DNA of 63,916 nucleotides, the filler included, from Asterionella formosa (taxonomy: Eukaryota): the NCBI GenBank assembly GCA_002256025.1. It is 21 parts of 21 records of this genome, joined end to end, with 100 filler letters (N's around TTAATTAATTAA, not from the genome) between each part and the next. Parts side by side here need not be neighbours in the genome. Positions count along the whole stretch, not along the records: positions 57,483 to 58,689 come from NKIB01003676.1; 20 more parts are not named here. One strand, given 5' to 3'. This document shows positions 16,408 through 63,916 of the stretch, in pieces. Below the pieces are notes generated by a model that was not told the origin of the DNA, searched no databases, and saw only the letters and a program-made list of their open reading frames with translations. Position 1 is the first letter of the stretch. Each line of letters opens with the position of its first letter. The position numbers and the translations under genes are program-made.

Positions 16408-17398
16408 GGCTGCATCATTATTATCAGTTCGGAGCGAGGAAAGTGTAAAGGTGATGGCCGAGGAAAGTGATCTGCAAACGGGTGATGGGTATTACCCCTG
16501 TGCCCTATTACAGTTTACAGTTACTGTAATAGTGCAAGGCTTTTAAAATCAAAATGCAAGCTCTCGTCATTGCAATGAACCAGACACGAACCACCTGTAG
16601 ACAGACCCCCGATTGGTGTGATTCTAAAAGATTGTAGGGGTACATACCAGGGAGTAACAAGTATATGTAGCACCATGGCGACATCATGACATCGAGTGTC
16701 GAGGTTGACGGTTAGCGACATAATAGTTATACTTTACTTTTGAGTACCGGTACCGGTATATACCAGCCATAGTCTACTTATTACTACTACCAGGTACCTG
16801 GTACCAGGGTACGACCGGTAATAGACCCACAAGAAGGCGCTACATAATTACCGGAAGCCAATAACTAACTACCGGTAACACATCATATGTATGAGAAGAG
16901 GACGAAAAATTATAGGCAGAGGCAAAGCAGAGGCACTCCTACCTGTTCACAACCTGTCCCCCCCCGTCGCGCGTAGGATTCAAGGACCGAGGACACGCGC
17001 ACAACAACGACAATTATGATCGACATATTCAACTACGTATATTCACGCACCGGATTCTTACCGGTAATCTCTAAATGTACAGCAAAGGGCAATGTCGGCA
17101 ATTGGGAAACATTTAGCTATTTTTTCTCAGGACGAGTATAAACCGGTTTTACCGCACCTTGTTCTCAAGTACCACAGCAGCATGCATGCGATTGTGTGCT
17201 CCTGGACTCCCCCGCCTTGAGAATTGAATTCCTAGTCCGTTCAGTCGAATATCTTTGTTCGATGTTCGCACATCACGAACACCGGTATATTTTGTATCCA
17301 ACATTGTATATACAACATTTGCAACAGCGAGGACGGTCTGTTGCAACAACATTTGGAAGTATTTTAGAGTCTAGCAACCAAAGCCAACAGAACTGACC

Positions 17399-19609: not shown

Positions 19610-20456
19610 GCACCTCACACAAGCAAAGAGAGACTTACTCACCAAGAAGGCTTTGTACCATCTTCCATTTGCAATTGAGAAGACAGATGTAGTTGGAATT
19701 GTTGCACATGCTTGGGAAAAAAGTTTTGCGAGATTACGCACAAACAAAAAAGCGGTAGCAGAGCGAGGCTGGGGACCTTTGAACTATAATTGTTTGTTGA
19801 ATCCTGAAATACAGCTGACAAAATTTGGTGTTGTCCCATTGAATAGAATCTCACACAGCAACAGAACCTCTATTACACCTGACCAGCTCAACCTGCAAGA
19901 AGGACTTTCAGGAACTCTTACAAATCAAATCGTTGAATACATAAACAGAGAAGATGTGCGAAATGGTAATGATGCAGCAGAACATGCCAGGAAAAGAAAA
20001 CAAACAGCACAAGCAGCAATCGACACACACAAACGAATGACCGCAGGACTGCACTTTGCTGTTGGAAACACTTGTCTAGGACCACCGCTTTTTGAGCATA
20101 TGCTGGAAATCAAACGCCGGCATGAAATCCAGGAACAAAACAAGGAGCAGAAATTGAATCAACGGTTTTTTGAATTGTCACAGAAGGTACAGGCCATCAG
20201 AAAGACTGGAAAGGAAGCTGGAAGCTACAACGTAGCTGAACTGAAAACAATGGTGACATGGTACAAGCGCAATGGCGATGCGCCGCTTCCAATAACCAGA
20301 CAGAACTTGTTGGCAAGATACTTGGAGACTTGTTGCCGTGGAGAAAAGCATTCTCCATATCCAATTCGGCCTCTTGATGTTGTGCTTGTGGGAGGGCAGG
20401 AGCTTAGTAGGGATGAGGGCGATATTGCAGTGGTGTTGATAGGCACAAGCATTTAA
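19610..20456 (+). mobile_element. pogo/DDE-1-type DNA transposase, C-terminal part
   Basis: ORF is open from the contig start. DVVGIVAHAWEKSFA...KKAVAERGWGPLN is typical of the end of a DDE-1 domain and is followed by a charged tail. Confidence 0.7.
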
Positions 20457-20600: not shown

Positions 20601-20805
20601 ACTGCTGTGACCCATTACCAGCAAATTTTGTCCACATAAAATGGTTCGTATCTCAGTACCTCGACCTTCAATGAGAATACCGACTGATCCGCAACCTGCT
20701 GACTCCTTTGGTTAACAAGACCTGGAAGTTTGATTCTCGCAAGGCATGGAATAGGTTTAGTCGAACTAATCAAACGAATAGGAGAACTCAGTGGGTCACA
20801 GCAGT
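20601..20805. mobile_element. 205-bp segment bounded by 14-bp inverted repeats (MITE or transposon terminus)
   Basis: ACTGCTGTGACCCA (20601-20614) / TGGGTCACAGCAGT (20792-20805), downstream of the transposase. Confidence 0.55.
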
Positions 20806-22645
20806 TCTTTACTGGTACNNNNNNNNNNNNNNNNNNNNNNNNNNNNNNNNNNNNNNNNNNNNTTAATTAATTAANNNNNNNNNNNNNNNNNNNNNNNNNN
20901 NNNNNNNNNNNNNNNNNNCAAAATGGGCTGAACAAGAAGAGAAATGCAGAGTATTGTTGTGGACTTCATGATTCGAAACTAAATGACACCTATAATACGT
21001 TCTTGAATGTTGCGGCCACTCATTTAAATATATATATATATATATTATGTTTGTGCACATACTATACAGATAAATAGTCTACTGCTTAATTAAAGTTCCG
21101 GCATTTAGGGGGGGGAAGAATTATTCTGAGCAATCAAACACACATTTCAATTGTAAAATAAACATGTAATAGTACTTTTAACAGAGCTTTCACCATTCAG
21201 CACTGTTTCCATATGATTTGATGCAGCTATTGGTCAAAGCACCTTCAGGGATGACAAGTTTCGGGGGTGAAACAGACAACAAGCAGACCTAAGGCCCTTT
21301 GGGGGGCCAATTAGTAAGACTTTATAACCTCCAAAAAACGTCGAGTTCTTTAACAAAAGCATACTCTAAATTTACTCAATGATTTAACTATAGTTTTTTC
21401 TTTGACCTGCATCTCTTGATTGTGCTGTTTGTTAACCAAGTATATGCTTGCTAGCTGGTGGCAGTCTCCTCTTATCAGTACGTTTGACATCAAAAATGAC
21501 AACTTTATGAAACCAAATAATACTCCCTGTCACAACATAGGGTCCACTGCATGGTGTCGGATGCAACAACTATGTTCATTTAGAGTCGATGCCACAATGA
21601 CCATTGTTATTGGCCTTGAGGACCATGACTAGTAGCCTTGTTTAACACTTGTCATTTTGCTTTGTGATGCTAATTTTTTTAGCAAGGCCTTTTATTCTTG
21701 TTTGTAGTCTGCTGATCTTGAATGCAAGATGATACTAATCCGGGTAAAGAAGGTAAAACCACCACTATGCTACAAGTAAGCAAAATTCAAGTAAATTCAA
21801 TCCAATAGCCCTAAACAATCAACATGTATCGCTATTTAGTGTTACTATACTTCCCAAACTATAAAAATCTAACCGAAATACCTGTTGCCTGCATGGTCTC
21901 GTTTCGGCTTTTTATTCAGCTTCTAATCACTGGTAGTGATGTAACTATACCGGAAAAGGTGAGAACTACTCCACTGTCCCTTAACGCTTTGCGAATGAGC
22001 ATGATATCCACATTGGCCATCAATGTTATTTATTCAAGGAACAAAGTTCGAGGCATGCAAAAAGATGAAGAAAAATCATGTTGACAAAAAATTGCAAGAC
22101 AAGGGTCCCCTATCTGCTCAGGTGGGANNNNNNNNNNNNNNNNNNNNNNNNNNNNNNNNNNNNNNNNNNNNTTAATTAATTAANNNNNNNNNNNNNNNNN
22201 NNNNNNNNNNNNNNNNNNNNNNNNNNNGCGAGTTTGCGGTCGTGAGAGACTGTCCGTCCCTCGTCCGTATCAAGTCGTAGCTTCTCTTGCTGGGTGGCAC
22301 TTTCTAGATTCGCTGGAAGAATGAAAATAACGCTGGCGAGTTTGACTTGATGATAGTCGTTTTTTGTTAAATTTTTGTTACCACAGTGGGCGCGCTCTGA
22401 TAATAAAAAATTATTATATCATGTGTGTTTTATAACACAAATTATTCTGGTGATCTGCTACATAATATCGTCCTTGCGCTCTGATAATAGAAATATTTTA
22501 GATTACTTCTCTGACATTAAATATATTTTTAACTTTAATTTTCAACAGTTGAATTTTCATATCGATGCATCCTCTTGTATGCTATGCCGCCTCTTGTTCA
22601 TTATATGCATGAGTTCTATATATTCATCATCGTCAGTCACTGACC

Positions 22646-31250: not shown

Positions 31251-31435
31251 GTGTCGCAATATAATATACAACATGGATAGAGGCCCTTTTCGTACTGGTA
31301 TATCACCTCGTAATAGTCCTAAACGACAAGGAAACAACATTGTGAATTTCCTTTACTGCATCATCACTATAGTTTATATGAAAACAAATCAAATGAGATA
31401 CCATTTCTCTACCTTTCCATCATTTAGGAGAATTT

Positions 31436-37520: not shown

Positions 37521-38015
37521 GATTATCTAGGTGCAGCCGGGGTGGGTATTATTTAAGCTTGGTTCGAGTATGGGGATGGAGTAGGTATGTTATTTTACAT
37601 GGTCTACATAATGCTGTATATTAGGACTGTATTGATGTACCTGGTACTGTAGCATCACAGGAGTGGAATATTCCAAGTACATAATACTATGAATACTTAT
37701 GATGGCTGGACAGCTCCATACAACGGACTGACGTACGGACATTGTCTCGTGGACTTTTGGAGGGCACTTGACCATAAAAAATAGCTAGTAGAGGAAGCAC
37801 GCTGGTAAGTGCAGCCGCAAACGGTACAGTACGTGGTACGACTGTACCAGGTACCAGGTACCAGGTACAGCTAAGTGTATAGCAAGCACTATCATGCGCA
37901 AGAGTACCGGTACCTGGTACCACTTCATAACGGTACTATACGTAGGTAACTCGACAACAATCGACGCATTGCATTGCATTTCATTTCCATCAGGTAGGTA
38001 CGAGCAACTATAGCC

Positions 38016-39282: not shown

Positions 39283-39899
39283 TTGCAAACTGCATCACAA
39301 TCCACAATATTAGTCACTCATTCAATCAACGGTTGTTAAGCCAATCATTCACTGGTCTTTATTGACTGTTGGAGCGAAGCTGTTCGTGATGTAGTTCCTG
39401 TCGTGTTATTATTGCCAGATTGGTGTACTCTAAAAGGGGTTTGTAGATTCTGCCTATCTGCCGTTATTCCAATGTATATTATGACAATTTTTGAAAAAGG
39501 CACTAGGTCGGCGGTAGACGGCTATCATCTGCGCCTGAAAACCTTTCAGCTATTCCTCATAGTCATTTTTATGTTTTGAACACTAAGGTTTCACTAAACC
39601 CTTCCAAAAGAAGTGACCGAAAAGTGAGAACTCTACTGGTAACTCATTTTACGCGCTGCCTCGGGCACTATCTAATCTCTTGTGGTGGGAATCATAATGT
39701 GAAAAAATTCTTAATGAAATGTCGTTTTGCATTTTAAGCAGTCAAATAAACCCACGTTGTGACCAAGATTTAGCTGTCATCTCGATCAGCTGGTTCTCCT
39801 TTTCAGGTTGCCTACTGGCAATGCAATTGGCAAAATGCCAATGGCTTTCCAACTTGATCCCTTTGATCTACCCAGATCACAGGTGATAGAATTCTACAT

Positions 39900-40436
39900 T
39901 CACATGGCCTCTTCTGCACCTTCAATCATTGCGGAACTCAAGATATCATAAATTCTTGCCCACGCCGTCTTGACTTCATTAGTAAATCTGTCCCCCATAG
40001 CGGTCTGCAATGTATCAATCAAAGCTCTTCCTACTACGGCATAATGAGCAGGTGTAGCACCGTATTGAGCATGCTTTGTGCCCAAGTCATGGAGTACTTC
40101 AATCAGTGGATCCAAATCAGGCGCCAAGAGGGAGACAGCAGTGTCGACTGTTGAAATGACCCCACTTGCATGCTTCATGAATCGTTCCGATTGATACAGT
40201 TCTTCGGAGCCAGGTTCATAGTCTTTGGTAAATCGAAACATGCCGTGTACTTGAGGTGCGATCTCAAAGATCCTGATTGTAGATAGGGTTAGCGATGGTT
40301 TGTTCTACGAGTACATTTTTTAAATAAAAGAAAGTGCAATCATTTCTTACTTTCGAAACAACATTTCACCAGCGACTTGTTCATAATTTGGAATCGCCTT
40401 GATGATCTTCCAGCTTTCAATAACTTGGGCCGCCAT
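39900..40436 (-). CDS. single-domain 3/3 globin (neuroglobin-like)
   Basis: VIESW, LFRKIFEIAP..GMF (CD1 Phe), distal KHASGV, proximal LGTKHAQYG; intron 40350-40273. Confidence 0.92.
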
Positions 40437-40676
40437 TTTAGAGCTTAGAATGCAAGGAGGTGGGAACTTAACAGTGGGTCACGCTTGAGAGCAATGAATA
40501 GTTTAGCACAACAACACACAAGTGATACTAAATGATGGAAAAAATCGACACTGCCTCTCGGCAACATAGTCATAGACTTTATTCTATAGCTGATGCCTGA
40601 ATGGTGACATTAGGTACTAGTACAAGGTACCTTAGTACCTGGTACACACCAGGTAAGGAGTACCTGGTACTAACTA

Positions 40677-40761
40677 CCAAGCAAGTTGCTGAACTAAAGA
40701 TTTAGCTATCTTTATCCTAGATTAAATTGATGCTTTACGCAAAATGACCGCAACTTGCAGG
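40677..40761. mobile_element. MITE family A, copy 1 (partly deleted)
   Basis: TA|CCAAGCAAGTTGC...TTTAGCTATCTTTATCC...GCAAAATGACCGCAACTTGCAGG|TA; homologous to 49212-49308 and 55765-55905. Confidence 0.7.
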
Positions 40762-41457
40762 TATCGGTACCTGGTACCAAGTACATGGTACCCTGATATG
40801 AATGATATCGGTATCAGGTACTACCAGGTACCACCTAAAAACTGAAAGTCATCCTCATCTTCCCCATGCTTCGACCCAAATTACTTGAGTCCGATTGCAT
40901 GAGTATGAAGGTCATTGTAGCTACAAATAGGTCTGATTATAACTAGGGTGAAATTAACATTTCTTGAGAATGAAAGTTTCTAATGCCATCATTTTGCCTC
41001 ATAAGGATGACTCTCCATACATTGGTTTCTAATACAAAAATGAGGAGTTTTTAACCTGCCATTTTTCGATTACCCTAGCTATTATTGCAAGAAAAACTTT
41101 TTGATGCCATAATATTATTAGTCCATTACTGATTACTACCCGTTGATTATTAGCCCGCCCTTTCGAGGAAAAACCCATAATAATAGTCATTTTCGATGAT
41201 ACGCCACTATTAATATTTGGTTTTGTGTCAAATGCAACTACTAACTAACTTTGGTGATGCTATATTTAATATTCATTACAATTGCTGCTGGACAGCCTCT
41301 TGACAATCACCAATTGTTTGTATGTAATACCACTTGTTGCTTGCATCTTTGTTCTACTTGTTGCACTTTGCTACTTGTCATCATGTAGTACCATAGTTAC
41401 CTGTGTCCACTGGCAGAATACGCTGACAGGCATAACTTTTGTTCTTTAATTGTTTGT

Positions 41458-41755
41458 TCATTCCTCCGCCTCTTCATCATCACCAAAGTCAACTCCATCC
41501 TTAGCATTAACCACTCCTGCAGGATGCTGCACAACACCACCAGCAGCAAGGACATCCACTGTTGGGGGCTGTTGGTCACCATGGTTTGATTTTGCACACA
41601 ACCTGGTAAGTAGCGCTTGTCTGCCTTGTTTGTGGCGCTGACGCATCGCCATTGCGCCTGAACCATCGTACCATAACCTTTAGATCAGCTACTGACTGCA
41701 AGTGCTCTGGCTTTCGTTCTGTGCGCAGCGCCATAAATTTGGAGCGAAGTGCAAC
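41458..41755 (-). mobile_element. frameshifted C-terminal remnant of a pogo/DDE-1-type transposase
   Basis: SVADLKVMVRWFRRNGDASAPQTRQ/ALLTRL aligns with NVAELKTMVTWYKRNGDAPLPITRQNLLARY of the 19610-20456 ORF. Confidence 0.7.
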
Positions 41756-42540
41756 ATAGATGGTAAGAGAGGGTGCTTACCAGTGCTAGTAGGATCACTG
41801 TGATTGTACTAGTAGCTTACTTTCTTCTAATTACATTTCTTGGGTGCCTCGACAAAATTGTGTACTATTTGAAATTAATTTGGTTTTTATTAATTATTTA
41901 TGTCAGATTATTCTCTATCTTGGTTGGTTTAATCGAAACCAACTTAACGGATTACAGTAAATCCGATTTTATTGTCTGGGCTACTTCTCTATACCAGTTT
42001 GCTTATCTGGACACCTGTGATCGCCGTTCACCCGAACACTACTGGCCTTTCCTCCAACAACTACTCACTCCAATCAGTTTTTTCAAATAGGAATCAAGAC
42101 TCATGATCAATATTTACTTGGCCCAGTAAGATCTTACAAGCACAAGTTAAGCAAGCAAGGAAAGTGTCTTTTGAATGGCACACGTGCGTCTGTAAATAAA
42201 AAAATATGATATATTTACAAGATCACGCCAGGTATCATACAATATGTGATACTTATTTTGTTACATGTATTGCTTATAAATGTATCATACTAGTATAAGT
42301 ATATGATCATGTCAAGCAAACTTATAATAAACAATACACCATTTAATTATCAAAACATTATCACACTTTTGTTAGCATAGGTAACGAGTCCCCAACCATC
42401 TTTTGCGAAAAGGTGATTGTCTTCGTAGCCGCATCGTTAGGGGAAACGTCGACCGCCTAGGAAGGCGGCACACGCTTCAAAGCTGCTTTTAGGAAGCAAT
42501 CCACCATATCTCGCCCACCAGGCAAGAAGACCATGCGGGA

Positions 42541-42651
42541 TGGTAAGAGGTGTGGTAGTCGAACCCAACAATTGCTTCTAAAAAAATGAAGGAATCTAAC
42601 ATCACAAAACCAGATCACAGGCAACGTGCTAAACCACTAAGCCATTCCCCT
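42541..42651 (-). pseudogene. tRNA-His(GTG)-like pseudogene or SINE head with an intron-like insert
   Basis: A box TGGCTTAGTGG; anticodon arm GTTGC-CTGTGA..[insert]..GCAAT; B box GGTTCGACT; ends in CCA. Acceptor and T stems pair poorly. Confidence 0.55.
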
Positions 42652-43836
42652 GATAATTTTAAATATATACTATGCAAAAAATGCATAATGTTGATGCAGC
42701 ATGATAAAATTTGAATTCTTACATTTTAAATGAGAAAGTGGACATTGACAATGAATGTTATAGGAATGATAACGAAATCGGGACCATTTCTTGTCACTGC
42801 AAACAAGTGTGAGTAATATGATTGTTGTGCACTGCTTTAATCATGCATATTCTCGAGTTCTGACTGGTAAGCACAATCAAAATGTGAAGCGGAACAATAA
42901 TAATTGAATAGAAATTAGGGACTCTTCCTTTCTTTATGTGGCAATACCAGCATAACTGAGAAACAAAACTTCCCCATTGCACTGTTGCGATTACTAGTTG
43001 GTCAACAAATATTGTTGCAACAAACACACATAATTATTCGATAAGTGATAAATGTTTTTTAGAAGACATAAATTTTTGTTCAAACCAAATAGATTTCCAA
43101 ACATGCTGTAGTATAAATACATCAATTTAGGCATAAATTCAAAAAAGTGGTGCAGTAGCTATGTGCTCAGCAACATTGATGACATTGTGTATTTTCCATA
43201 GTTGTGTATCAAGGTTTTGACTGTTGTTTAAATGATATAATGGAAGCAGTATTGACTCCTTCTGGTCCAGACTGATTGGTGTCTGTGGAACTGTTCATGT
43301 TGTGATTGGCACAGGTCTAAATATAAGTAGTTCAATTTTAGATCCATGTTCTTTGCCATGATGATGTACATCCACCTTTTTAGTCAGATGAGGAAGTAAT
43401 ATCCAACAATGCATATAAAGCTAAAGGAAGAAGACATGAAGGTTTGATATTGGGCCTCAAAGATACACTGAATTCAGCTTAATGAGTTGGCATGAATGGT
43501 AGTTTAATGCTGGTATAATAGTGCATTACTGGTAGTTGCATGGATGGAATACTGTACAGGTACAAAGGACATCAAAAGGGGCCCATAATCCATTCTTCTG
43601 CCGACTTCACATTTCCGCCCTGTCCTGCCATCATGCAAAGTATGTACAGAATTCCTGTGTAAACATACATACCGTTATAATTAGTATGTACGTGGGGGGG
43701 GACGTTGGGATGGTTTCGATCCCATGCATAAAATAATAAAAATCATCGATCTGCATTGATAAAACTGATAGACGAGAGTCTGAATACACAAGTGTGACGA
43801 GTCGTAACAAGTGTAATCCATACACAACTGCCAGAA

Positions 43837-46800
43837 ATGACTACGCCTCCCACGTCCGCCATGGCAGAATTGCACGTCAGCAAAGGAACGGGCAAGCGCG
43901 ATGCACTTCGTGCGAATGAGATTGCCGTACAGAAAATGTGGGAGGAGAAAAAGGCGTTTGAATCAGATGCGTCCGCTGCCGGAGACGAGAAATTCATTGT
44001 CACCTTCCCGTACCCCTATTCCAATGGCCATTTGCACATCGGCCATGCCTTTAGTTTGACAAAGGCGGTCTTTCGAGCACAGTATGAACGCCATCAAGGA
44101 AAGAACGTATTGTTTCCGTTTGCCTTTCACTGCACGGGCATGCCAATTCAAGCGGTACGTACCCTCTTTATTCCGCACACTACCGGTACTTTGAATTGAC
44201 CTGACCGGTATCATACAGAAATGCATTTTTGATGAATGTGTTCACTGTAGATCCTTCCAAACAACGCTGACACTTTTCTACTACTGATACTACTGAATAG
44301 GCCGCCAACAAACTCAAAAGTGAAATTGACCTCTATGGGTGTCCCCCTCAGTTCCCCGAAGACGACCCTTCTGTTCGTGCGGAAATGGAAGCCGACATTT
44401 TGGCCAAGGCCGAAGCCAAGGCTGCCACAGCCCTGCCGGACAAGAAAGCAAAAGGTAACAAGACCAAGCTTGTTCAAAAATCTGGGACTGGCATTGTCAG
44501 ACAGTGGAATATTTTGGCCAAAATGATTCCCATCGAAGAGATTCCTGCCTTTGTTGATCCACTCCATTGGCTCCATACGTTTCCACAAGTTGGAGTTACA
44601 CATATGAAGAAATTTGGATCTGGTGTGGATTGGAGACGTTCTTTTATTACCACTCATGTCAATCCATACTATGACGCCTTTATTCGCTGGCAATTCAATG
44701 TCCTCAAGAGCAAAAATAAGATTCTTTTTGGAAAGCGTAATAACGTATTTTCATTGTTGGATGGACAGGTTTGTGCAGATCATGATCGTTCAGAGGGCGA
44801 AGGGGTTGGAGCGCAAGAGTACGTATTGATTAAGTTGCAGGTGTTGGAACCAGACCATGGTCAAGCACGCCACGCCAAGATGCAAGCCTTGTTGAACAGA
44901 TTTCCAGATAAGCACATATACATGGTGCCCGCGACTCTTCGTCCTGAAACAATGTATGGACAAACTAACTGCTTTGTGCTTCCAACTGGAGAGTATGGTG
45001 CGTATTCTGTCGATGCTACGAACGAAATTTTTATCATGTCGGAAAGGTCAGCTCGTGGGCTCTCGTGCCAATTGTTTGATAAAGAAAACTATTTCATGAA
45101 GGAATTTGGAAAGATTGAGTGTCTCGAAACGTTTACCGGTGATGAATTGCTGGGCATTCCTGTCCGATGTCCTTTGGCCACTTACGAAAAAGTTTACACT
45201 TTGCCCTTATTGACCATTAGCATGTTTAAGGGAACCGGAGTCGTCACCTCTGTTCCTTCCGATGCTCCTGATGACTACATTGCCCTCAAGGCCCTTCAGG
45301 ACAAGCCGGACTTTGCTGCCAAATACGACATCACACCTGACATGGTTGACCCCTTCCACGTAGTACCAATTATTGAAATCGAAGGGTACGGTAATACAAG
45401 TGCTGTCTTCATGTGCGAAAAGCTCAAGATTCAGTCTTTCAACGACAAGGCAAAATTACAGGAAGCCAAAGATGAAACATATCTTAAGGGATTCAACTTT
45501 GGCATCATGACCATTGGGCCATATTCCGGAAAGAAAGTGTCGGAGGCCAAGCCAATTATCAAGCAAGAAATGATTGGCGCAAACCAGGCTCACCTATATT
45601 TTGAACCCGAATCTCGTGTTGTGTCAAGGACTGGAGATGAATGTGTTGTCGCGGCCACAGATCAGTGGTATTTGTCATATGGAGAAGAGTCTTGGTCGCA
45701 ATTGGTCAAGGATCATGTCTTGGATGGAGCCAGATTCAATGCTTACGACCCCAACGCGCTAAGCAAGTACGAGTACACAATTGGTTGGTTAAAGGAGTGG
45801 GCGTGCACTCGCCAATTCGGACTCGGAACTTTTTTGCCTTGGGATCCAGTGTGGGTCATTGAGTCCTTGAGTGACTCAACGATTTATATGGCATACTACA
45901 CTATTGCTCATGTGTTGCAAGGGGTCGACAATCTAGAGGGGGAGTCTGCGAAGTCACCTGGAAAGATTAATCCCGAGGATTTGACCACTGAAGTCTTTGA
46001 TTACATTTACCGAAATGGGGTTTTGCCTGAGACTCCCATCGCCACCGAAACTCTTGACAAAATGAGAGCTGAATTCCGATACTGGTATCCTATGGACTTG
46101 CGCGTATCTGCGAAGGATTTGATACCTAACCACTTGACAATGGCTCTATTCAACCACGCTGCCATTTGGGAAGATGAGCCGGAGTTGTGGCCTAAAGGTT
46201 ACTACTGCAATGGTCATGTCTTGGTTGACGCTGAGAAAATGTCGAAGTCTAAGGGTAACTTCTTGATTATGAACGAGACCATTGATATGTACACTGCTGA
46301 TGCCACTCGATTTGCGTGTGCTGATGCTGGGGACTCTTTGGACGACGCAAATTTCAGCCGAGAGACCGCAGATTCTGCAATCATATCACTAAGTAACGAG
46401 GAGACCTGGATCAACGAAGCGGTGGCTTCTAGCAGTCTCAGAACGGAAGGCGAACTCAACTTTATGGACCAAGTGTTGATTAATGAGACTAACAGTCTCG
46501 TTGAGGCGACCGGTGTTTCCTTCGCGACAATGCAGTTCCGAGAGGGCCTTCAACATGCATGGTTCGAAATGATGATAGCTCGAAATGACTATCGTACTTG
46601 GTGCCAAGATAGTTCAACACCAATGCACCGTGATGTGTTGCGGAAGTGGTGCGAAGCGTTGGTCATTCTCATTTGCCCCGTCTGCCCTCATTGGTAAGTA
46701 ATACTGTCTATTGTAATCCGTGAACCATTGTTGTTGCTGTGTATAGGCTTATCGAAGTGCCTCCTTGTTCTCAGGTCTGAAAAGATTTGGAAGGCACTTG

Positions 46801-47345
46801 GAAAGGAGGGACTTGCAGTCCAGGCGCCTTGGCCGGTTGCCGAAGCAGAGGATAAGATCTTAACTCGTCAATCCAAATTCCTTAGCTCGTCTATCAAGAC
46901 CTTCCGTGCTCAAGTTGGTAAGGCCAAGAAGGGCTGGAAGGAGTCGACCATTCTCGTTACCGACTCATACCCTGAATGGAAGATTGAGGTCCTCAAATGG
47001 ATGCAAGGACAATATGATGGAACTTCTTTTTCTGCTACTTTTATGAAAGATATTAAGGATTGGACTGCCTCCAGCTTTTCTGACAAAAAACTTGTAAAAT
47101 TTGCCTTGCAATTCGCCTCGTTTATCAGAAAGGAAGTCGAAGATGTTGGAGCCCCGGCCATGGACTTGACCCTTCCTTTTGACCAAAAGTCCATCCTTGA
47201 TGGAAGTTCACTGTATCTCAAGGCACAATTGAGTCTGACGGAATTATCGGTTGTCATGGTTGGCGACAAGGATACTGCCAAGGACGTTCCCGATCGTGTT
47301 CGTGAGAACGTCACACCGGGAAAGCCTTACTTGTGGCTGCACTAG
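43837..47345 (+). CDS. LARS1: cytosolic leucyl-tRNA synthetase
   Basis: [35 protein letters not shown] editing motif, KMSKS; introns 44155-44300 and 46694-46774. Confidence 0.97.
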
Positions 47346-47662
47346 ATCTAACAAGAGCTAAAAGAAGGCACAACAATTGATCGAACTATCTCAACGATAC
47401 CAGGGTTTTATTTTGCTAGTTATTCCATTAATTAAAGGCAGCGAGAAAATTCTAATAACTTGCACAACAGGGTGCCTTCGAGGGTGCGACGGGTCTCTCC
47501 TCTGTTGAAGGCCGATAGTTTCGGGGATAACTGTTACGTACTCCAATGGTAGCATGACATGTTCTCGTAGTTAGCTTTTGCTACAATACCAGTTAGAGTT
47601 GACTGGTTGCGGAAGGTGCCATGATGGTCGCTCGTCCCGAGGCTAGACTGTTTATGCACACA

Positions 47663-48745
47663 TCACTCTTTATCATTTCCAAACAGCTGCTTTGAGATGG
47701 GCACCAAACCTGGTATTGTTGACTTGGACAGTTCTTCGGCATGAATAGCAAAGCACCTTTTTGTGTGCTCTTCATCTTTGAGCAAGGCCTCAATAGCATT
47801 AGTTACAATTGTATGAGTTGCACCGACTATTGCTTGCTGTTCAAAGGGAGCCGCCTCTTCTTCTTTAGTGACGGCCACTTGCTGAATTTGAAGCTTTTCA
47901 GTTGTAATCGACCTCGCTATGAGCCGATGCTCCTCCGATAAAGTTGTTCTCCTTCTGAAAAACTCATTGTCATCTCCATGATCGGATCCAGATTCCTGAA
48001 GTCGTATCTTTCGTGAAGACTCGTCCGAGTCTTCTGAGCCTTTCCGGTGGCCTGACGACAGTCGTCGTTTTACCATGATCACTTCCTCGGTGTGTGAGTC
48101 ATTATCATCTATAGAATAGGTCTCATGACGACCAATTAGTTTACATCGATCCCAGTCCCCTTTTCGGAAAAGCTTGTGACGAAAAACTTCAATCCCTGTC
48201 CGCTGGGTCGCAATCAAGGCGAAACCCCAAGTAGCTAGTTCTGATAGAAATGACTCCATAGAGTCTAAATCGAAACGATCGTTCAGAATCATCCGATCGA
48301 ACTTATCGCTCCTTAGCGCAAAGTACTTTCCGTCCGGTAGCCAAGTTATCATATTATTGTATTCAGATTCCATCAAAAGTTTCATTAGCTTCTTTGGAAA
48401 GGTTGGCAACTTAGATGCACCACTATGACTTTCAGTGACCATGGTAGGATTCGTTCTTTGCATAGGAGATACGTCCTCTTCGTCCTCTGGTTGGCCTACG
48501 ACTGGTGATGTCGACGCATTCTTCTTCATTTTGCACTCTTCGTTATGTCCATCCTCGCTACTTTCACTCAATTGAAGGGTCACAGCACTCAACAAAGCAG
48601 AAAGACCGGAATGAGTTGATAAAGAAAAGTGTTGATCTACAGTGTACACATCATCTGACATATTCCTCCGTAATGGTTCATTTACACTGCTGTTGGAATT
48701 CTCCATACTTGAAGCCAGCAACACATCTCTATCATCTATCACCAT
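47663..48745 (-). CDS. HSF-type DNA-binding domain protein (divergent)
   Basis: FPKKLMKLL..ITWLPDGKYF..SFLSELATWGF..FRHKLFRKG; start codon uncertain. Confidence 0.8.
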   Translation of the reverse strand: MVIDDRDVLLASSMENSNSSVNEPLRRNMSDDVYTVDQHFSLSTHSGLSALLSAVTLQLSESSEDGHNEECKMKKNASTSPVVGQPEDEEDVSPMQRTNPTMVTESHSGASKLPTFPKKLMKLLMESEYNNMITWLPDGKYFALRSDKFDRMILNDRFDLDSMESFLSELATWGFALIATQRTGIEVFRHKLFRKGDWDRCKLIGRHETYSIDDNDSHTEEVIMVKRRLSSGHRKGSEDSDESSRKIRLQESGSDHGDDNEFFRRRTTLSEEHRLIARSITTEKLQIQQVAVTKEEEAAPFEQQAIVGATHTIVTNAIEALLKDEEHTKRCFAIHAEELSKSTIPGLVPISKQLFGNDKE

Positions 48746-49211
48746 GAAAAGGAATTGACGCAAAGTCAGGAGGTGCAACACCAAAACAAAAAAGACCGAG
48801 ATCTATGCACTATTGGGTGAGAAAAAGACAAGATGCTATAAAAGGGTCACTTTATGGCTCTTGCCATCAGTTTGTTCAATGGTCGGATGTACACTGGCAT
48901 ACATAAAGAATACCGGTGGTATGTATGAAGTCGATAAAATGAGTCTATACGAAGCATTCGCCGATGAATATAATGCATGCATATAGAAGGGACAGTACTT
49001 AGACAATGGTACCAGGTACTGTGCAATGTAACTAACTGGTACTCCGAGTACATGGTAACTTGTACAAGGTACCACGGTACCGTAATGACCAGCAGACCAT
49101 ACATCATGCCAATTATTTTTAAAATTTATCATTCAGGCACAACTAATTTCGTACCTGAAGGTAATATTATATACCATCTCATCATCTGATCGAATTACAC
49201 CGGTAATGGTA

Positions 49212-49308
49212 CCATGTAAGTTGCGGGAATTGTGCTAAAACTAAAACTTTAGCTATCTTTATCCCATATTAAATTGTTTGTTTAAGCAAAATGACCGCAA
49301 CTTGCAGG
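49212..49308. mobile_element. MITE family A, copy 2 (97 bp, TA-flanked)
   Basis: TA|CCATGTAAGTTGCGG ... CCGCAACTTGCAGG|TA imperfect terminal inverted repeats. Confidence 0.75.
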
Positions 49309-49310
49309 TA

Positions 49311-49538
49311 CTGGTTTGTTGAAATACCGGTATGGTGGCGCTTCGTCTTCCTATCGCGCTCCGGTACTGCCATGGAATGACCGGTCAAGATCTTTCTGTC
49401 GCCACTATTTTCCATATAAATCTGCTATGTTCATACTGTCTATGATTTCCATTTAGACATTCCTCAGACTACATCTAGTTTTCGGACACCTGTCGACATC
49501 AACAGCCTAACTGACGCATTCTGACACGAGTTTACCTG
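49311..49538. repeat. dispersed repeat family B, copy 1
   Basis: Reverse-complement homologue of 56616-56827; shared GAATGACCGGTCAAGATC and TTCGGACACCTGTCGACATCAACAG. Confidence 0.8.
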
Positions 49539-52254: not shown

Positions 52255-52402
52255 CCACCTTGGATCCCTACAAGATCCACCACCTTGGATCCCTACAAGA
52301 TCCACCACCTTGGATCCCTACAAGATCCACCACCTTGGATCCCTACAAGATCCACCACCTTGGATCCCTACAAGATCCACCACCCTAAATCCCTACAAGA
52401 TT
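52255..52402. repeat. 25-bp tandem array CCACCTTGGATCCCTACAAGATCCA, five copies plus one degenerate unit
   Basis: Directly visible; same array at 61404-61551. Confidence 0.95.
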
Positions 52403-53462
52403 CACTCTTCTTGACCTTTCACACAGTTTGTCACTTAAGTTCTATACAACCTTGGATCCTTCTACAATCTGTAATCTTCTGGAAATTTCTAGTTTTCATT
52501 ACCTTCCATTTAAGACTCAATCTCTTATATATATCACTACATCATCAAGTGATATACTGACTGGTTATCAAGCCCAATTGCGCTTATTTTCTGTGAAATA
52601 AAAGCAACCTCTACAAGATTAAAACAATCTCAGTCACTTTCCTTTCTATTACTCAAGGAAATCTTCTTTATAGTCCTTCCTCATCATGTCAGGCAATATT
52701 CCTGATCCTCTCCCTTATTCCATGACCATCGACAAACCTATTATGGGAGGACTCACCATTTGTCCAACCGAAATTGTTGCATGGACTGGAGGTCAACCTA
52801 ACATAGATTGGACTGGATTGACCAATGTCAAAGCAATCAAGCGTTCTCCCAACTGCTCTCGTCCAACTAAGTCCAGTGATCAGTCAAGGAACTGGAACTA
52901 CCGCACAGCTCCACCTCTCATTCTGTTTAAAAAGGATGGCAAGGACCTAGACCTATACTCCTATGGTGTTAAGGTTTTGGCACATCTTGAACTCACAGGT
53001 ATGGACTCCATCATGTATGTCAAGAGTCTCAGTGATGGCACCAATATGGTCAATGTCATCAAGGACTTTGAGCAGGTCACCCTTTCCCATGTCCTTGACG
53101 AATCTGAGTACTACAAGAACAAATTTGATTCATATGACCAGGACAATGACACAACTGCTCGCTTGTATCTTGAATCCACACTTGATCCCTCACTCCTCAA
53201 GGAACTTGACCTCCGTCAGGAACCAGGTGACTCTGCTGCCGTTACCTGGATGCGCATCCTTCGCCTGGTTAGCAGTGGATCTGTTGAGCGATTCAACCGA
53301 AAGAAAGATGAACTCAAGCAACTGTCTCCAATTAAGGAACCTGGTGAAAGTGTCTCACTTTATGCCAACAAGATCCGCAGAATTTGCCGTGAACTTGAAA
53401 ATGCCCATCAGTTTGAATGGGTGTTAGTGTTGGCAATCATTAAGGCACTCTGTCAGGTTTCA
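52255..53462 (+). mobile_element. Ty1/copia (CoDi-like) LTR retrotransposon 5' part: LTR end, PBS and gag (52686 onward)
   Basis: 25-bp tandem repeats, PBS-like GGTTATCAAGCCCA, and gag with HLELTGMDSIMY and PGESVSLYA. Confidence 0.8.
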
Positions 53463-54934: not shown

Positions 54935-55764
54935 AGTCTGCGAAACGAGAACAATCATAGTCAGATAGCTACCATCACATGATGTGAGTTCATAAGATCA
55001 AATTGGTAGTCTGTGGCGGGCGCAGGTTCATTGTCGGTAGTTTGCTTGTTGATGCCATGCGAAATTACAGAGATCTATTCATTTACATTGTACGTAGTAT
55101 TGGAGCAAACTGCCTGCGATGCATGATTGGAAATACATGATCGTTCACTTACCTTGAATGCAGGAAATTGGTAAATTTGATAGATTATGGGAACATGTTA
55201 TAATTAAAATCAGAAAGCAACTGAAGTGTCGCTCATATTTTGTTGTTGCTTTGATGATGGCTTCGCGGCTTCGCATTCATTCAAAGGTTTTCCATCATAC
55301 CAAGTCAGATTCATCGGCGACACCTATTCTTCAGAACCACATATATTACTGCCATAAAAACCAGTATTCATTGACATCCCTATTCGAAGGTTCGTTGAGC
55401 ATATTGCCCACATGATATCTTCAGCATTCCCATTCATTTGATGGAGTGCTTCTCATTTCAATTTTTTTTCTAGCAGGCAAAGGTGAGTATTACCAGTACC
55501 GGTATTCCATATAATTTGAACGATGATCGTGTGAGGAAACATTTTCCACGTCATGATCAAAAACAGTGATTTTTTTATATACAGAAATATCTTAGATGAT
55601 GATAACATCACAAAGGGGTATTCGTATATGAATATGTGTATGGCTAATCCATTGTCATTTAAACACCCGGAGATACCGCCATCTATACCGGTACCGGTAC
55701 TCGAAATAATTAGCAATTCTGCACAGTATTCCTCTGGACCCATTGCTGATGACGAGAAGCGATA

Positions 55765-55905
55765 CCTGCAGGTTTTTGCGGTCATTTTGCTGGTACCTTG
55801 TATGTACGAGCAAGTTCCAGTCATTTGGCTTAAATCAACAAATTAATTAAGGATAAAAACAGCTAAACCTTTAGTTTCAGCACAATTACCGCAACGACCT
55901 GCAGG
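55765..55905. mobile_element. MITE family A, copy 3 (inverted, with internal insertion)
   Basis: TA|CCTGCAGG..TTGCGGTCATTTTGC...GGATAAAAACAGCTAAA...CCGCAACGACCTGCAGG|TA. Confidence 0.7.
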
Positions 55906-56615
55906 TACCAGGTACTATGCATACAAATACCGGTACCAGTACCGGTAGGCAGCTGCGTTCACACGAGGCGAGAAACAGTCCTCGTCGCTCAGCCACATCC
56001 GGGCCCTTTTGTCGGCGTGTTCGGATGAGGAGAAAATCGTTCTATCGCTCTTCGTTCCGGCCATTCAGTATTCCTNNNNNNNNNNNNNNNNNNNNNNNNN
56101 NNNNNNNNNNNNNNNNNNNTTAATTAATTAANNNNNNNNNNNNNNNNNNNNNNNNNNNNNNNNNNNNNNNNNNNNACACTAAAGAGCCCGGAGAATTCTC
56201 ATTTTGATGTAGCAGGCAGTGGTCTGGGAGTTCGCTTATTGCTAGCCTTCCACGATGTTCCCGACGATTCTAACTACAATACCCGTAGTACAATTCTCTT
56301 TTGCTTGCTTCTTGCCTCCTAATCACGATTAATGGCTCTTGGATGTTCATTCGAAATGATTTACGGTATGCATGTACACATATAGGCATGTACGATGTAC
56401 CCATGAGTAGTACTTTATGTTCCATACGTAACTTATGTACACCTACTTTGTACTGTGTTATGTTGATGTTTTTCGACTACCGGTAGACGTACAGTAGTTT
56501 GTATGATTGAGATGATGTTACCCCCAGGTACCTGGTACCAGGTACCCTGATACCAGTTACCGGTATGTATTTACCGGTTCGTTAGTACTTGGTACGTAAA
56601 ATTTTGATGATTGGT

Positions 56616-56827
56616 CTTGTGTTCAGGTATGTCAGAGTGTGTCTGTTAGACTGTTGATGTCGACAGGTGTCCGAAGACTAGGTAGTCTGAGGAGTGTCTA
56701 AACGGAAATAGACAGGATTTATACAGCAGAAGAATCTGCAGACGAGCGGCGTGAGAACGATCTTGACCGGTCATTCCTGGGCAGTACTGGAGCGTGCTAG
56801 AATAGGCGCCATATATTTCAACACAGG
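56616..56827. repeat. dispersed repeat family B, copy 2 (possible MITE)
   Basis: Homologous to 49311-49538; weak terminal inversion CTTGTGTTCAGGTAT / ATATTTCAACACAGG. Confidence 0.75.
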
Positions 56828-57482: not shown

Positions 57483-58580
57483 TGTTGTCCTGCCTCCCAA
57501 CGATTGTCATCCAAGTAGCTACCACATTGATGGCTTCATTACCTTAAACATTCTCCATCCTTCGAATGCGCAATGTGTCGAAGTCACAATGTTTTTCGTT
57601 ATGTATTGCAAAATTTTTCTTTTCTTGTCATGTGCTTTACTACGACGTATCTTTTCATGAAGCAGCAGGCATTGTTTGTTAACATGACAGAACGATTTCA
57701 AAAATATATATATGCCATGAATATAGAAATAAAATTTGTAAATATATATATATATTAAGTGTTGTACATTTATAAAATTCAAACGCGCTCTCGACATGGA
57801 ACATCTGATATGGTTGAGATGATCATACTCGCATATACATAATTCGAAAATACTCAATGCACTATATGTCCATTGTTTTCCACGACTACGTGTACCGGTA
57901 TTATCTCTGAAATTTGTTTGCATCGATGCTTTCTACGTCCGTTGAAACTAATTATTTAGACCGTTAAATAGCCGCCAGGGTTTTGGTAGCAAATTGTTTA
58001 AGCCCCTTTTTTGGTCGGGAGCTCTTCATGTGTACCGGTACATCATATGACAATAACAATATACCATATATATATACAGAGTACCAGTAGCAGGTAGTAA
58101 GTGATATACTGGGGGTAGTCGGAGTAGTAAACTAGCAACAGAACACCATATGTTCAGGACTGTTGCTACTGCAGTGGGACAGTAAATCATCATATTTTTA
58201 GGATCGTATGATCATAAAACTAAAAACCAAAAGAACATCATATGTTTATGACTCTTGTAATTACATTGGGACAGTAAATCATCATAGTTTTAGGATCGTA
58301 TGATCGTAAAACTAAAAACAAATAGAACACCATATGTTCATGACTGTTGCAATTACAGTGGGATAGTAAATCATCATAGTTTTAGGATCAAATGATCGTG
58401 AAACTGAAAAGCGGTACCGGTAGTCGGAGTAATAAGCAAGCAATAGAACACCATAGTAAATCATCATATTTAATATTGTATGATCGTGAAACTGAAAAGC
58501 GGTAGTCGGAGTAATAAGCAAGCAATAGAACACCATATGTCTATGACTGCTGCTACAACAGCGGGACAGTACCGGTAAAT
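57483..58580. repeat. non-coding repeat family C, copy 1, with an internal ~92-bp tandem array (58140-58580)
   Basis: Highly similar to ~63200-63916; GAACA(C/T)CATA recurs at 58141, 58233 and 58325. Confidence 0.9.
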
Positions 58581-60599
58581 GAATTTAAGATCATCGAACT
58601 TTAAGGAAGACAACGACAACAGCTGGTCGTGTTGCTGGTCCACTTTTAATGGCCGAAGAAGGAAGCGACGAAAAGATCACCATTACGAGNNNNNNNNNNN
58701 NNNNNNNNNNNNNNNNNNNNNNNNNNNNNNNNNTTAATTAATTAANNNNNNNNNNNNNNNNNNNNNNNNNNNNNNNNNNNNNNNNNNNNAATCATATGAT
58801 ATACAACAATCAATATGAACCTTCACCTCATTTGAAACAATATAGTATATCTTGTCGTGGTATTGACTTCTACGGAGATGGCAAACTATTTAGGCGCACG
58901 GCATCATCAAGCAAATGCGTTATGATTGAATTTGGGTATAACATGTAGGGAGTACATAACAGGTTTTCATGCAACTTTCTAATAACACGCATGACAAGTG
59001 CTTTAACACGTGACCTAATCCGTCCTCGAAAACGTATATAAATTTATATTCATTTATCTAGAAGAAAAAAATACTGCCATGACCCATTGAAATCACTTTT
59101 TATCTGCTTTTTATTATCATCGTATCTTCTAAGGAAATCGTTCAATCAGCATTCTAACACAACAGCTAACAAGGTGACGGAGAGTTTCTGTACACTCAAA
59201 AGAGATCATACCGTTGACATCATTTTATCTTATGATTACAACAGTGAATTTATAATTTATTATCACGTAGTCACAGTCACTAGTAACTAAGCCTATGATA
59301 GTTTGATCACATTTATAAGATCAAATAAAAACACATTTTTTTAAAGGTTCTTCATAAATATTTCTAATATACATATTACTAAATAATTTTACAATAATAA
59401 GATGTTATTATCATCTCTATCATTATGTCAAAATATATAATTTGATGAATGTATTGCTATAGTGGTAAATACCAATAGGTATTCTCTTTGAGTTTACACT
59501 AGAAGACGTCTTTACATCGAGGAAGAAATTGAAACAACTCATTGAATCGGTTGAGAGCACATGTCTGTTCCTTTGCCAATTTCATAATTTCGAGAAGGTT
59601 TACAATTCTCCAGAATAAAGAGTTCATCTGTTAATTCAATTGTTGCCCCAATTCATTTATCAGAGAGGTCATCTTCTACAGCAAATTCCAAACATTTGAA
59701 CCATGTTTTTCCAATGAAAAGTAGCGGGCTATTCTTATTGATTGTTCACCAAATCGAGAAGAAGCCAGTCGATCTCTCTAATAATGCACGATATTTCCCG
59801 TGACAAGACAAGGGCACCTCTACATGTAGAGGCTAAGCTTTCTAAAACAGAATATGTCAACAACCCTACCCCAGATTGCCTGATGAATAAAGATGATAAT
59901 GACTTAAGTGCTGGTTTAATAGATTCTGTTGTTCTTCCAAGAAAGACAACAATATCAAGTAATGACGTCTGCAAATAAAAACAATCATATTTCCATNNNN
60001 NNNNNNNNNNNNNNNNNNNNNNNNNNNNNNNNNNNNNNNNTTAATTAATTAANNNNNNNNNNNNNNNNNNNNNNNNNNNNNNNNNNNNNNNNNNNNAATG
60101 CCTGCCTGTTTCTTCCAGAGGAACCGGCCCACAACAGAGTCCTTCTTGTTATCTGGAAGCGAAGAACAAGATTCACAGAGTCAGATGATGGCTGGTTTTT
60201 AACAAACAAGACCTTTTTACATTCCATATCAAACAATGCATGTTCAAGTTCAAACGCAGGGCGAGGAACACCAAGGAAGAGAAGGGTATACAGCCACAGT
60301 AAACACAACGAAAGAACAATAGAATAAGAACAAGAAAAATGACAGCAGAAACAGCAGGGACAGCGATAACGACAACGAGAACACAACCATGATAGCAGAA
60401 AAGACGACAAAAACGACAACAATAACAATAACAATAATTTCATTTTACCATGAATGTGATATTTTGTTCCTTTCATTCCAGCAGCTGCTTTTCGTTAAGA
60501 AAACTGGCGCGGACGGTTTTCCTCGCCGACATTCATTTTGTACTAAATTTGTGTACATTGTACTTCAGAAAAAGCTGGCGCAGTCTATGCGTAGTCAGC

Positions 60600-61303
60600 A
60601 TTGATCAAATTCGTCATCAGGATGCGTAAAATATTTTCGGTGCTTGCTGTGGACTGATGACCAGTGCTGTAGCAACCTAAATTCCAATTCATTTCTTTCT
60701 CAACCAATTTGATGCCGACTTCTATCTAATATATTATTTGATGTACCCGAAATCAAAGGCTTTTTGTCGAATGTCGATATGCTCAGAACAAGAGTATATT
60801 GTCCAAAGTATGCATCAGGATGGCGTGTAAATTTTAGGTGTCTGCTGTGGACTGATGACTACTGCTTTAACAACCAAACTTCCAATTCATCTTTCTCTAC
60901 CAATTCATTGTCAATTTCTATCTAGCATAGTATTCGATTTATACGAGATATCAATGCCGATATTTCGAATGTCGATATGCTCGCTCAGAACGAACATACA
61001 TTGATCAAATTGCTCATCAGGATGGTGTGTAAATTTTCGGTACTTGTAGCTTGATCATTAGTGCAGTAGAAACAAAAATTCCAAACCTCCTTTCTCCACC
61101 AATTTAAGGCCGATTTCTATCCAGCATAGTATTCGATGTACACGAGATCAAAGTCGTCATGAAAAATGTCGATATTCTCAGAACGACTATATATTGATCA
61201 ATGGAGGCATCAGAATGAGTAAAATTTTTGGATGCTTGTGCACTGATCATCAGTGCTGTGGCAACAAGAATTCCAAACCTCCTCCTTTCTCCACCAATTT
61301 AAG
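60600..61303. repeat. diverged ~200-bp tandem repeat (~3.5 units)
   Basis: CATCAG(G/A)ATG at 60615, 60813, 61015 and 61208; AATGTCGATAT and TTCCAA..C..TT.CT..ACCAATT recur in the units. Confidence 0.88.
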
Positions 61304-61403: not shown

Positions 61404-62610
61404 CCACCTTGGATCCCTACAAGATCCACCACCTTGGATCCCTACAAGATCCACCACCTTGGATCCCTACAAGATCCACCACCTTGGATCCCTACAAGAT
61501 CCACCACCTTGGATCCCTACAAGATCCACCACCCTAAATCCCTACAAGATTCACTCTTCTTGACCTTTCACACAGTTTGTCACTTAAGTTCTATACAACC
61601 TTGGATCCTTCTACAATCTGTAATCTTCTGGAAATTTCTAGTTTTCATTACCTTCCATTTAAGACTCAATCTCTTATATATATCACTACATCATCAAGTG
61701 ATATACTGACTGGTTATGAGCCCAATTGCGCTTATTTTCTGTGAAATAAAAGCAACCTCTACAAGATTAAAACAATCTCAGTCACTTTCCTTTCTATTAC
61801 TCAAGGAAATCTTCTTTATAGTCCTTCCTCATCATGTCAGGCAATATTCCTGATCCTCTCCCTTATTCCATGACCATCGACAAACCTATTATGGGAGGAC
61901 TCACCATTTGTCCAACCGAAATTGTTGCATGGACTGGAGGTCAACCTAACATAGATTGGACTGGATTGACCAATGTCAAAGCAATCAAGCGTTCTCCCAA
62001 CTGCTCTCGTCCAACTAAGTCCAGTGATCAGTCAAGGAACTGGAACTACCGCACAGCTCCACCTCTCATTCTGTTTAAAAAGGATGGCAAGGACCTAGAC
62101 CTATACTCCTATGGTGTTAAGGTTTTGGCACATCTTGAACTCACAGGTATGGACTCCATCATGTATGTCAAGAGTCTCAGTGATGGCACCAATATGGTCA
62201 ATGTCATCAAGGACTTTGAGCAGGTCACCCTTTCCCATGTCCTTGACGAATCTGAGTACTACAAGAACAAATTTGATTCATATGACCAGGACAATGACAC
62301 AACTGCTCGCTTGTATCTTGAATCCACACTTGATCCCTCACTCCTCAAGGAACTTGACCTCCGTCAGGAACCAGGTGACTCTGCTGCCGTTACCTGGATG
62401 CGCATCCTTCGCCTGGTTAGCAGTGGATCTGTTGAGCGATTCAACCGAAAGAAAGATGAACTCAAGCAACTGTCTCCAATTAAGGAACCTGGTGAAAGTG
62501 TCTCACTTTATGCCAACAAGATCCGCAGAATTTGCCGTGAACTTGAAAATGCCCATCAGTTTGAATGGGTGTTAGTGTTGGCAATCATTAAGGCACTCTG
62601 TCAGGTTTCA
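61404..62610 (+). mobile_element. second near-identical copy of the copia 5' segment (gag from 61834)
   Basis: Identical to 52255-53462 by eye except the PBS, which reads GGTTATGAGCCCA. Confidence 0.85.
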
Positions 62611-63199: not shown

Positions 63200-63916
63200 T
63201 TGTGCTGCCTGCCTGCCTCCCAACGATTGTCATCCAAGTACCACGCACATTGATGGCTTCATTACCTTAAACATTCTCCATCCTTCGAATGCGCAATGTG
63301 TCGAAGTCACAATGTTTTTCGTTATGTATTGCGTAAACTTTCTTTGCTGTCATGTGCTTTACTACGACGTATCTTTTCATGAAGCAGCAGGCATTGATTG
63401 TTAACGTGACAGAACGATTTGAAAAATATATTGGCCATGAATATAGTAATAAAATTTGTAAATATATATATATATATAGAGTAATACATTTTATAAAATT
63501 CAAAGGCGCTCTCGATATGGAACATCTGATATGGTTGAGATGATCATACTCGCATATACATAATTCGAAAATACTCAATGCACTATATGTCCATTGTTTT
63601 CCACGACTACGTGAACCGTGTAAGTCATAACCGCCAGGGTTATGGTGGCAAATTGTTTAAGCCCCCTTTTTGGGCGGGAGCTCTTCATGTGTACCGGTAC
63701 ATCATATGACAATAACAATATATCATATATATATACAGAGTACCAGTAGCAGGTAGTAAGTGATATGCTGGTGGGGGTAGTCGGAGTAGTAAACTAGCAA
63801 CAGAACACCATATGTTCAGGACTGTTGCTACTGCAGTGGGACAGTAAATCATCATAGTTTTAGGATCATATGATCGTAAAACTAAAAACAAATAGAACAC
63901 GAAATGTCTATGACTG
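63200..63916. repeat. non-coding repeat family C, copy 2
   Basis: Aligns with 57483-58340 but lacks the segment ~57895-57965. Confidence 0.9.

Follow-up and report, generated by a model that had tools for sequence, protein, structure and literature searches.

Content of the window and a family of TA-bounded words

The window, i.e., the whole stretch of Asterionella formosa DNA that was analysed (63,916 nucleotides, filler included), comprises 26 N-free segments, most of which are ~1,207 bp from position 19610 on, with linkers of the form N-TTAATTAATTAA-N. The three best look-alikes of an ankyrin-repeat protein encoded in the window fall in clusters in which Bacillariophyta predominate, and the named metagenomes that contain this DNA are mostly of freshwater, lake or algae type, in keeping with a freshwater diatom. 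A transporter-like gene at 10519-11990 (bile-acid:sodium symporter type by eye) has apparent frameshifts or stops and is possibly a pseudogene. The contigs at 52255-53462 and 61404-62610 are 99.8% identical and carry six 25-bp tandem units followed by an ORF, which has the look of a copia-type gag by eye and no Pfam match. The decayed, multi-copy transposase-like sequence at 36000-37300 (minus strand) also has no Pfam match, is found at 5-8x the depth of single-copy DNA and is presumably hAT-like, judging by its motifs. Two degenerate tandem arrays are noted: (i) an array of 92-bp and then 82/88-bp units (58110..58600, plus strand; second copy at 63772-63916), which holds the first two indel cases discussed below, and (ii) a 198-bp array (60599-61303) with units 72-77% identical, from which the words described next are absent.

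Words with a C...G core between two TA dinucleotides are heavily over-represented in the window (all expectations from an order-3 Markov model). TACCGGTA, which the earlier note had called ubiquitous, is indeed far above chance at 37 observed vs 2.1 expected (2.12 unrounded). The five-letter cores TACCAGGTA/TACCTGGTA (TACCWGGTA) are observed 34 times vs 1.2 expected, and these two classes hold the top two ranks among TA-x-TA words. The family extends to TACCAGTA/TACTGGTA (26 vs 4.6), TACCAGGGTA/TACCCTGGTA (5 vs 0.2) and TACCSGGTA (5 vs 0.5), such that inner cores of 4, 5 and 6 letters are all enriched between fixed TAs. By comparison, 11 control words of the same TA-nnnn-TA shape have 0-6 occurrences each in the window. 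CCGG or CCWGG within nine other symmetric flank pairs occurs 0-2 times each, and an effect of CCGG/CCWGG methylation sites is thus rejected as a sufficient cause. Other palindromes of the TA-bounded type include TACGTA (21 vs 6.8 expected), TAGCTA (21 vs 7.2 expected) and TACATGTA (6 occurrences), each of which may be a scar from other TA element families.

The words are nearly absent from coding DNA. Within the 22.9 kb of hand-listed coding sequence, none of the 37 TACCGGTA or 34 TACCWGGTA copies is found, and the whole family is represented by two of its 107 members. In non-coding DNA, the density is ~3 words/kb, and the words make up ~2% of the bases. When words that share a TA are merged, the 107 occurrences reduce to 84 collapsed sites, of which 67 hold one word, 12 hold two, 4 hold three and 1 holds four; two pairs of these sites are copies of one repeat. 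Using hand-placed genes, 42 sites lie in 9.2 kb upstream and 5 in 3.3 kb downstream of genes (odds ratio of 3.0 for word density per TA, p 0.016), while 30 of the 84 lie away from annotated gene ends. A copy of TACCGGTA at 44181 resides within an intron of a leucyl-tRNA-synthetase-like gene; thus, the words also occur outside promoters. At 22 of the 28 lone TACCGGTA copies, at most one of the four flank letters matches CCGG.

Resident TA-flanked elements

A C-terminal fragment of a putative pogo-type (DDE_1-like) transposase is encoded at 19611..20453 (plus strand). Eight longer homologues of this protein (43-51% identity) carry FVDEVG, LDGHGS and QVGD motifs, and a spacer of 37 residues separates the final two Asp residues in all eight (D-D37-D). 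The homologue core resembles DDE_1 (pogo) clusters with scores of 0.91-0.96 as judged by language-model look-alikes, with DDE_1 carried by 12-100% of the members of these clusters. Searches of Pfam (E 0.001-0.01) and PDB sequences returned no name for the transposase; the pogo assignment is instead drawn from the visible D-D-D triad and the look-alikes. Two proteins of the pogo transposase cluster (P0013 and P0017) are labelled in NCBI as bacterial MAG, which is probably eukaryotic contamination. Downstream of the fragment, a subterminal region (20601..20817, plus strand) includes a 14-bp inverted repeat and the sequence ...ACTGG-TA (20815-20817). The latter may be a right end with a CC...GG tip; it has loose support from a diverged paralogue and could itself be a scar. 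Reading 20601-20805 as a separate CTG...CAG MITE was dropped, as the motif belongs to a longer segment common to 59016-59088. No confirmed locus of a full-length element with its transposase was found in viral or prokaryote collections, and any mobilisation of the MITE described below by a transposase of the 19611-20453 type is hypothetical.

The earlier note had predicted a TA-flanked element family with CC...GG termini, and a MITE with CCAG...CAGG ends answers to this prediction in the window. The MITE fits the Stowaway/pogo type: it is non-coding, 85-97 bp long (about 90-100 bp in round figures), high in copy number and has imperfect TIRs with TA at both ends. Each of the four copies (at 49210, 40675 and 55763 of the window and 949-1042 of contig L001) is bordered by a TA at either end, and ...CCGCAACTTGCAGG-TA forms the end of three of them. 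The copy at 49210..49310 (plus strand) is flanked by TAs and has the right end ...CTTGCAGG-TA, while the left end of the family, TA-CCAGCAAG, is provided by the consensus of other MITE copies. Loose contig ends at 49218 number 77 in run X2 and 85 in run X5; they share the left-end consensus TA-CCAGC(AAG), and one joint among them is the variant CCGGCAAG. An internally deleted copy at 40675..40763 (plus strand) is followed by a stack of scar-like words, and six letters are missing beside the MITE end, at 40760, in 8 contigs of X2, 9 of X5 and 8 of X6, where depth is ~100x that of single-copy DNA as a rough figure. A composite MITE at 55763..55907 (minus strand), found by a search for TA-bounded inverted arms, has outer arms complementary at 20 of 24 positions and is followed by TACCAGGTA. 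The 29-bp mini-element inside it (CCAGCA...CCTGCAGG between TAs, 55763-55795) demonstrates that copies also become smaller through internal deletion.

The MITE tips, CCA...AGG, spell both CC+GG and CC(A)GG, and the inner letters of the words are the terminal 1-3 bases of this resident TA-flanked TIR element, as seen at three window loci, in L001 and in the contig consensus. Outside the MITE, the consensus reads TACCTGG on the left and CCAGG/CCAGGTA on the right (X2 and X5; overall agreement only ~0.4). This consensus, together with the contigs without six letters at 40760, indicates that MITEs sit among scars. Beyond the window, the MITE right-end pattern has one match in metagenome contigs (the 1.1-kb contig L001) and none in viral contigs or prokaryote genomes; the stack pattern has no match in viral contigs. 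The 26 viral loci with a 16-letter MITE left-end pattern are set aside as chance, as none resembles the window or includes TACCGGTA or TACCWGGTA. A repeat at 42367-42580 (depth ~75x single copy in its bin) is common to L001:658-836, and a MITE copy accompanies this repeat in the same contig both in L001 and in the window.

Indel cases, stacks and strain comparison

Three sites had been offered by the earlier note as direct evidence that TACCGGTA is a 6-bp insertion at TA. The letters and coordinates given for all three are correct and the first site is a clean 6-bp difference; the term "direct evidence" is overstated, as the first site is unpolarised, the second is poorly anchored, the third does not differ by 6 bp, and no single case proves excision. 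Case 1 (58415..58422, unstranded) lies in a duplicated 82/88-bp array unit, the sister of which has a plain TA at 58503. Alignment of the two units has one 6-letter gap with flanks that are otherwise identical (20 letters on the left, ~38 on the right). The gap slides over a direct repeat, CGGTA (58412-58416 and 58418-58422; 5-bp microhomology); thus, the difference may equally well stem from slippage that deleted the six letters from the sister unit or from a near-perfect duplication. Polarity is not fixed, since the only two outgroup units (58090 and 63749) have the right flank alone in common with case 1.

Case 2 (58570..58577, unstranded) resides in the last unit of the array. The sequence comparison favours a gain of the word, because all four sister units (58183, 58275, 58367 and 63845) have a plain TA. 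The unit forms the array end, however, with right-hand homology of only three letters (AAT), and its alignment is not unique: MAFFT places no gap, while pairwise alignments introduce several, one of them of 5 or 6 letters. Case 3 (49325..49332, unstranded) is near the left end of a high-copy repeat whose paralogue reads TATA at 56812-56815 (minus strand). Here, a 6-bp insertion is not upheld: in the best alignments of TATA with TACCGGTA, one gap spans the four letters CCGG and a second, separate one spans the three letters TGG, and the case has a simpler reading as slippage. The repeat itself belongs to a second family (49311-49527 and 56630-56826, the latter on the minus strand) whose first letters, directly after a TA, are C(C)TG(G)TGTTGAAA and which has a depth of ~390x single copy at 49473 (X2); it is possibly another C-tipped TA element.

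Stacks, in which neighbouring words share TAs, form 17 of the 84 collapsed sites and are exemplified by 16745..16811 (unstranded), upstream of a gene. In total, 40 of the 107 words share a TA with another word. The sites are also distinguished by context, as 27 of 84 collapsed sites read G-TA-C, compared with 6.6% of the remaining TAs (p 2e-12). Once GG sides are removed, 56 of 138 sides have a G ahead of the TA (background 20%). Since C is its first letter and G its last, each scar recreates G-TA-C. Insertion at random among non-coding TAs is rejected as the cause of stacking, with a mean of 8 stacked words and none of 500 simulated runs reaching 40. With a fitted context preference alone, 20 words are stacked and no run of 300 attains 40; when 500-bp regional clustering is added, the figure rises to 30 (range 20-42), and 13 of 300 runs attain 40. 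Under these simulations, target preference and local clustering would largely account for the stacking, at ~30 of the 40 words and perhaps not all. The G-TA-C preference could partly reflect decayed stacks, which makes the fit partly circular, since decayed stacks would raise G/C flanks too.

Strains were compared using 4 of 24 runs over 30076-49538 (19.5 of 64 kb), DNA that is separate from the contig of cases 1 and 2; coverage of the stretch by X15 is too thin for use as an outgroup. Among the orthologous long records listed, X2 is gap-free over 30076-33249 and 37442-40715, while X5 shows a net difference of +6 from the window and X2 in each of 30076-33249 and 37379-40715 (records 17 and 20; single-copy DNA). 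These two X5 records have only 4 and 5 substitutions and mark the only listed places with gaps in X5 and none in X2. Compared by length only, the two differences are consistent with CCGGTA. Four other regions have equal gaps in X2 and X5 (net +8, +15, -3 and +2), and one X6 record is net -4. Among the rows listed for the four runs over the 19.5 kb, no orthologous site was seen at which one strain retains the element where a second has a scar. An assembly artefact as the source of the words is rejected, in that a 3.2-kb stretch with three TACCGGTA recurs in long contigs from independent runs (X2 with no gap, X5 with net +6); this stretch is other than the contig of cases 1 and 2.

Origin of the words and comparison with known systems

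The words are quite probably excision footprints of TA-targeting Tc1/mariner/pogo-type elements with C-C...G-G tips, present at unusual density. In Tc1/mariner elements, the non-transferred strand is cut 2-3 bases inside the element ends. An element would insert at TA with duplication of the dinucleotide; on excision, the transposase would cut so that either flank keeps a 3' overhang of 2-3 element bases, as is established for this group, and end joining would fill in these overhangs. Two bases kept per side would give TA-CC-GG-TA. For the MITE tips CCA/AGG, three bases may be kept, with the overhanging A and T pairing to give TA-CCAGG-TA; such tips would predict that the central letter of the core is more often A/T than C/G, in agreement with 34 A/T and 5 C/G among the 39 five-letter cores. 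The 3+3 product, TACCATGGTA, has no occurrence in the window. The rarer CCAG/CTGG, CCSGG and CCAGGG cores may derive from other trimming or from other C...G-ended families. End joining would also produce fixed TA borders with a variable inner length. As suggested by the counts and simulation, a scar formed at G-TA-C would leave two G-TA-C sites, the most-hit context, and stacks would thereby be seeded.

The inference of an excision scar, as made in the earlier note, is supported in part, by the word family, the coding exclusion, the CC...GG element and the fit of the X5 +6 differences, and not by the three indel cases as direct proof. The word excess, the exclusion from coding DNA, the matching element tips and one clean 6-bp indel are observed directly, and the excision chemistry, a responsible transposase and a polarity of gain at most sites would follow from the footprint reading. 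A footprint is a known kind of event, and what is unusual here is the density and stacking. Several observations speak against a footprint origin: the zero count of TACCATGGTA, the simpler slippage readings of cases 1 and 3, the net +8, +15, -3, +2 and -4 of the other gapped records, and the failure to find an element/scar pair among the rows listed or the ends of an autonomous partner in the viral and prokaryote collections. In addition, ~3 words/kb of non-coding DNA would imply an extreme number of fixed excisions, and the upstream bias of the words also fits a promoter signal.

Such a signal is the substance of one alternative, in which the words are transcription factor (TF) binding sites that arose by point mutation and are kept by selection in promoters, as proposed in oomycetes for TACATGTA and (G)TACCGGTA. 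The upstream bias (p 0.016) agrees with this proposal, as do the Phytophthora motifs M93 TACATGTA and M94 TACCGGTA (PMC3597505), the binding of TACATGTA by PsMyb37 (PMC11134190) and the judgement of Seidl et al. that a footprint origin is unlikely (PMC3520976). The bias is, however, predicted alike by promoter-seeking insertion and by selection for binding sites. A binding site would be expected to keep its length and spacing, whereas the inner length of the words varies over 4-6 letters between fixed TAs; in addition, the words arise in a satellite array and repeats and by a 6-bp indel (cases 1 and 2), 30 of the 84 sites are away from annotated gene ends, and the word letters match element tips. 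A TF-site origin is, thus, considered unlikely, while selection that keeps scars once made may act as a second step and is compatible with a footprint origin.

Two further alternatives concern how the words were made. The words may be transposon-derived without cutting and rejoining, by aborted gap repair or microhomology deletion of a MITE (C-CAG + CAG-G to CCAGG) or by abortive cutting beside element ends. The 29-bp mini-element at 55763-55795, which is joined via a short GCA(A) homology, the internally deleted copy at 40675 and the TACCTGG and CCAGGTA that flank MITE ends in the many-copy consensus are in keeping with such events, and microhomology-mediated miniaturisation is known for Tc1/mariner MITEs (PMC3814204). 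This route is nevertheless improbable as the main source of the words, as it yields CCAGG and not CCGG, the commonest single word, and intermediate sizes are rare compared to the 107 minimal words of the window. The other alternative, local slippage or fold-back (palindrome-templated) synthesis at TA, dispenses with transposons altogether. It draws on case 1, where CGG stands ahead of TA within a 5-bp direct repeat, and on the palindromic and tandem nature of the stacks; yet there is no flank template for 22 of the 28 lone TACCGGTA, other palindromes of the same shape are without enrichment, and the match to element tips is left unexplained, which makes this the least credible of the readings and a very improbable one.

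Footprints are usually regarded as rare by-products. If ~2% of non-coding bases are scars, excision would be a leading mutational force on promoters, and the commonest palindromes of a genome would record the ends of past transposons. A wider proposal, which is speculative and doubtful at present, is that a self-feeding scar process writes diatom promoter DNA and also made the oomycete TACATGTA/TACCGGTA motifs, some of which were later adopted by TFs (e.g., PsMyb37). If so, excision rather than insertion would be the mass source of regulatory motifs in stramenopiles. A footprint origin for the diatom words would reopen the published call that abundant oomycete motifs are not footprints. No description of these words as footprints in diatoms was found in the literature, as searched largely outside subscription journals, and diatoms are not mentioned in PMC7325037.

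Footprints of TA-targeting elements are described from several systems. The Tc1 footprint of Caenorhabditis elegans, TA-CA-TG-TA, is called rare (as cited in PMC3520976). The diatom words are similar to it in the duplicated TA and the two terminal bases per end between the TAs, and differ in the CC/GG tips, the 5- and 6-letter variants, the ~3 words/kb of non-coding DNA and the stacking. Mariner/Stowaway excision leaves a duplicated TA and element-derived overhang bases after NHEJ repair (PMC4561436), pogo Passer footprints are 0-4 bp (PMC9976928), ZB/Sleeping Beauty footprints are 0-3 bp (PMC7913693), and the Emigrant MITE has footprints at empty sites (PMC1636448). These systems share with the diatom words a TA target, element-derived bases after end joining and likely MITE donors. 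By contrast, footprints of Passer, ZB, Stowaway/mariner and Emigrant are documented in assays or at few loci, whereas here no other words in the window would be as over-represented as the scars. In the local transposase homologues, the spacer between the final two Asp residues is also 37 residues vs the 35 of Passer. In rice, most excisions occur with deletions or filler DNA and 8 of 94 are perfect (PMC4423477); thus, uniform scars at such density are unusual.

The words also resemble the oomycete motifs TACATGTA (motif-1/M93/AM-20) and (G)TACCGGTA (motif-9/M94), the latter quoted as motif-9 GTACCGGTA in PMC10031896. The same word, a G before TA and an upstream bias are observed in the diatom, which belongs to another stramenopile lineage. 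For the oomycete motif, taCATGta was recognised as a rare Tc1 footprint and that origin was rejected on grounds of abundance and conservation (PMC3520976). While the oomycete motifs are published as TF sites, in the diatom DNA the word is found as an indel difference, and its letters agree with the tips of a resident element.
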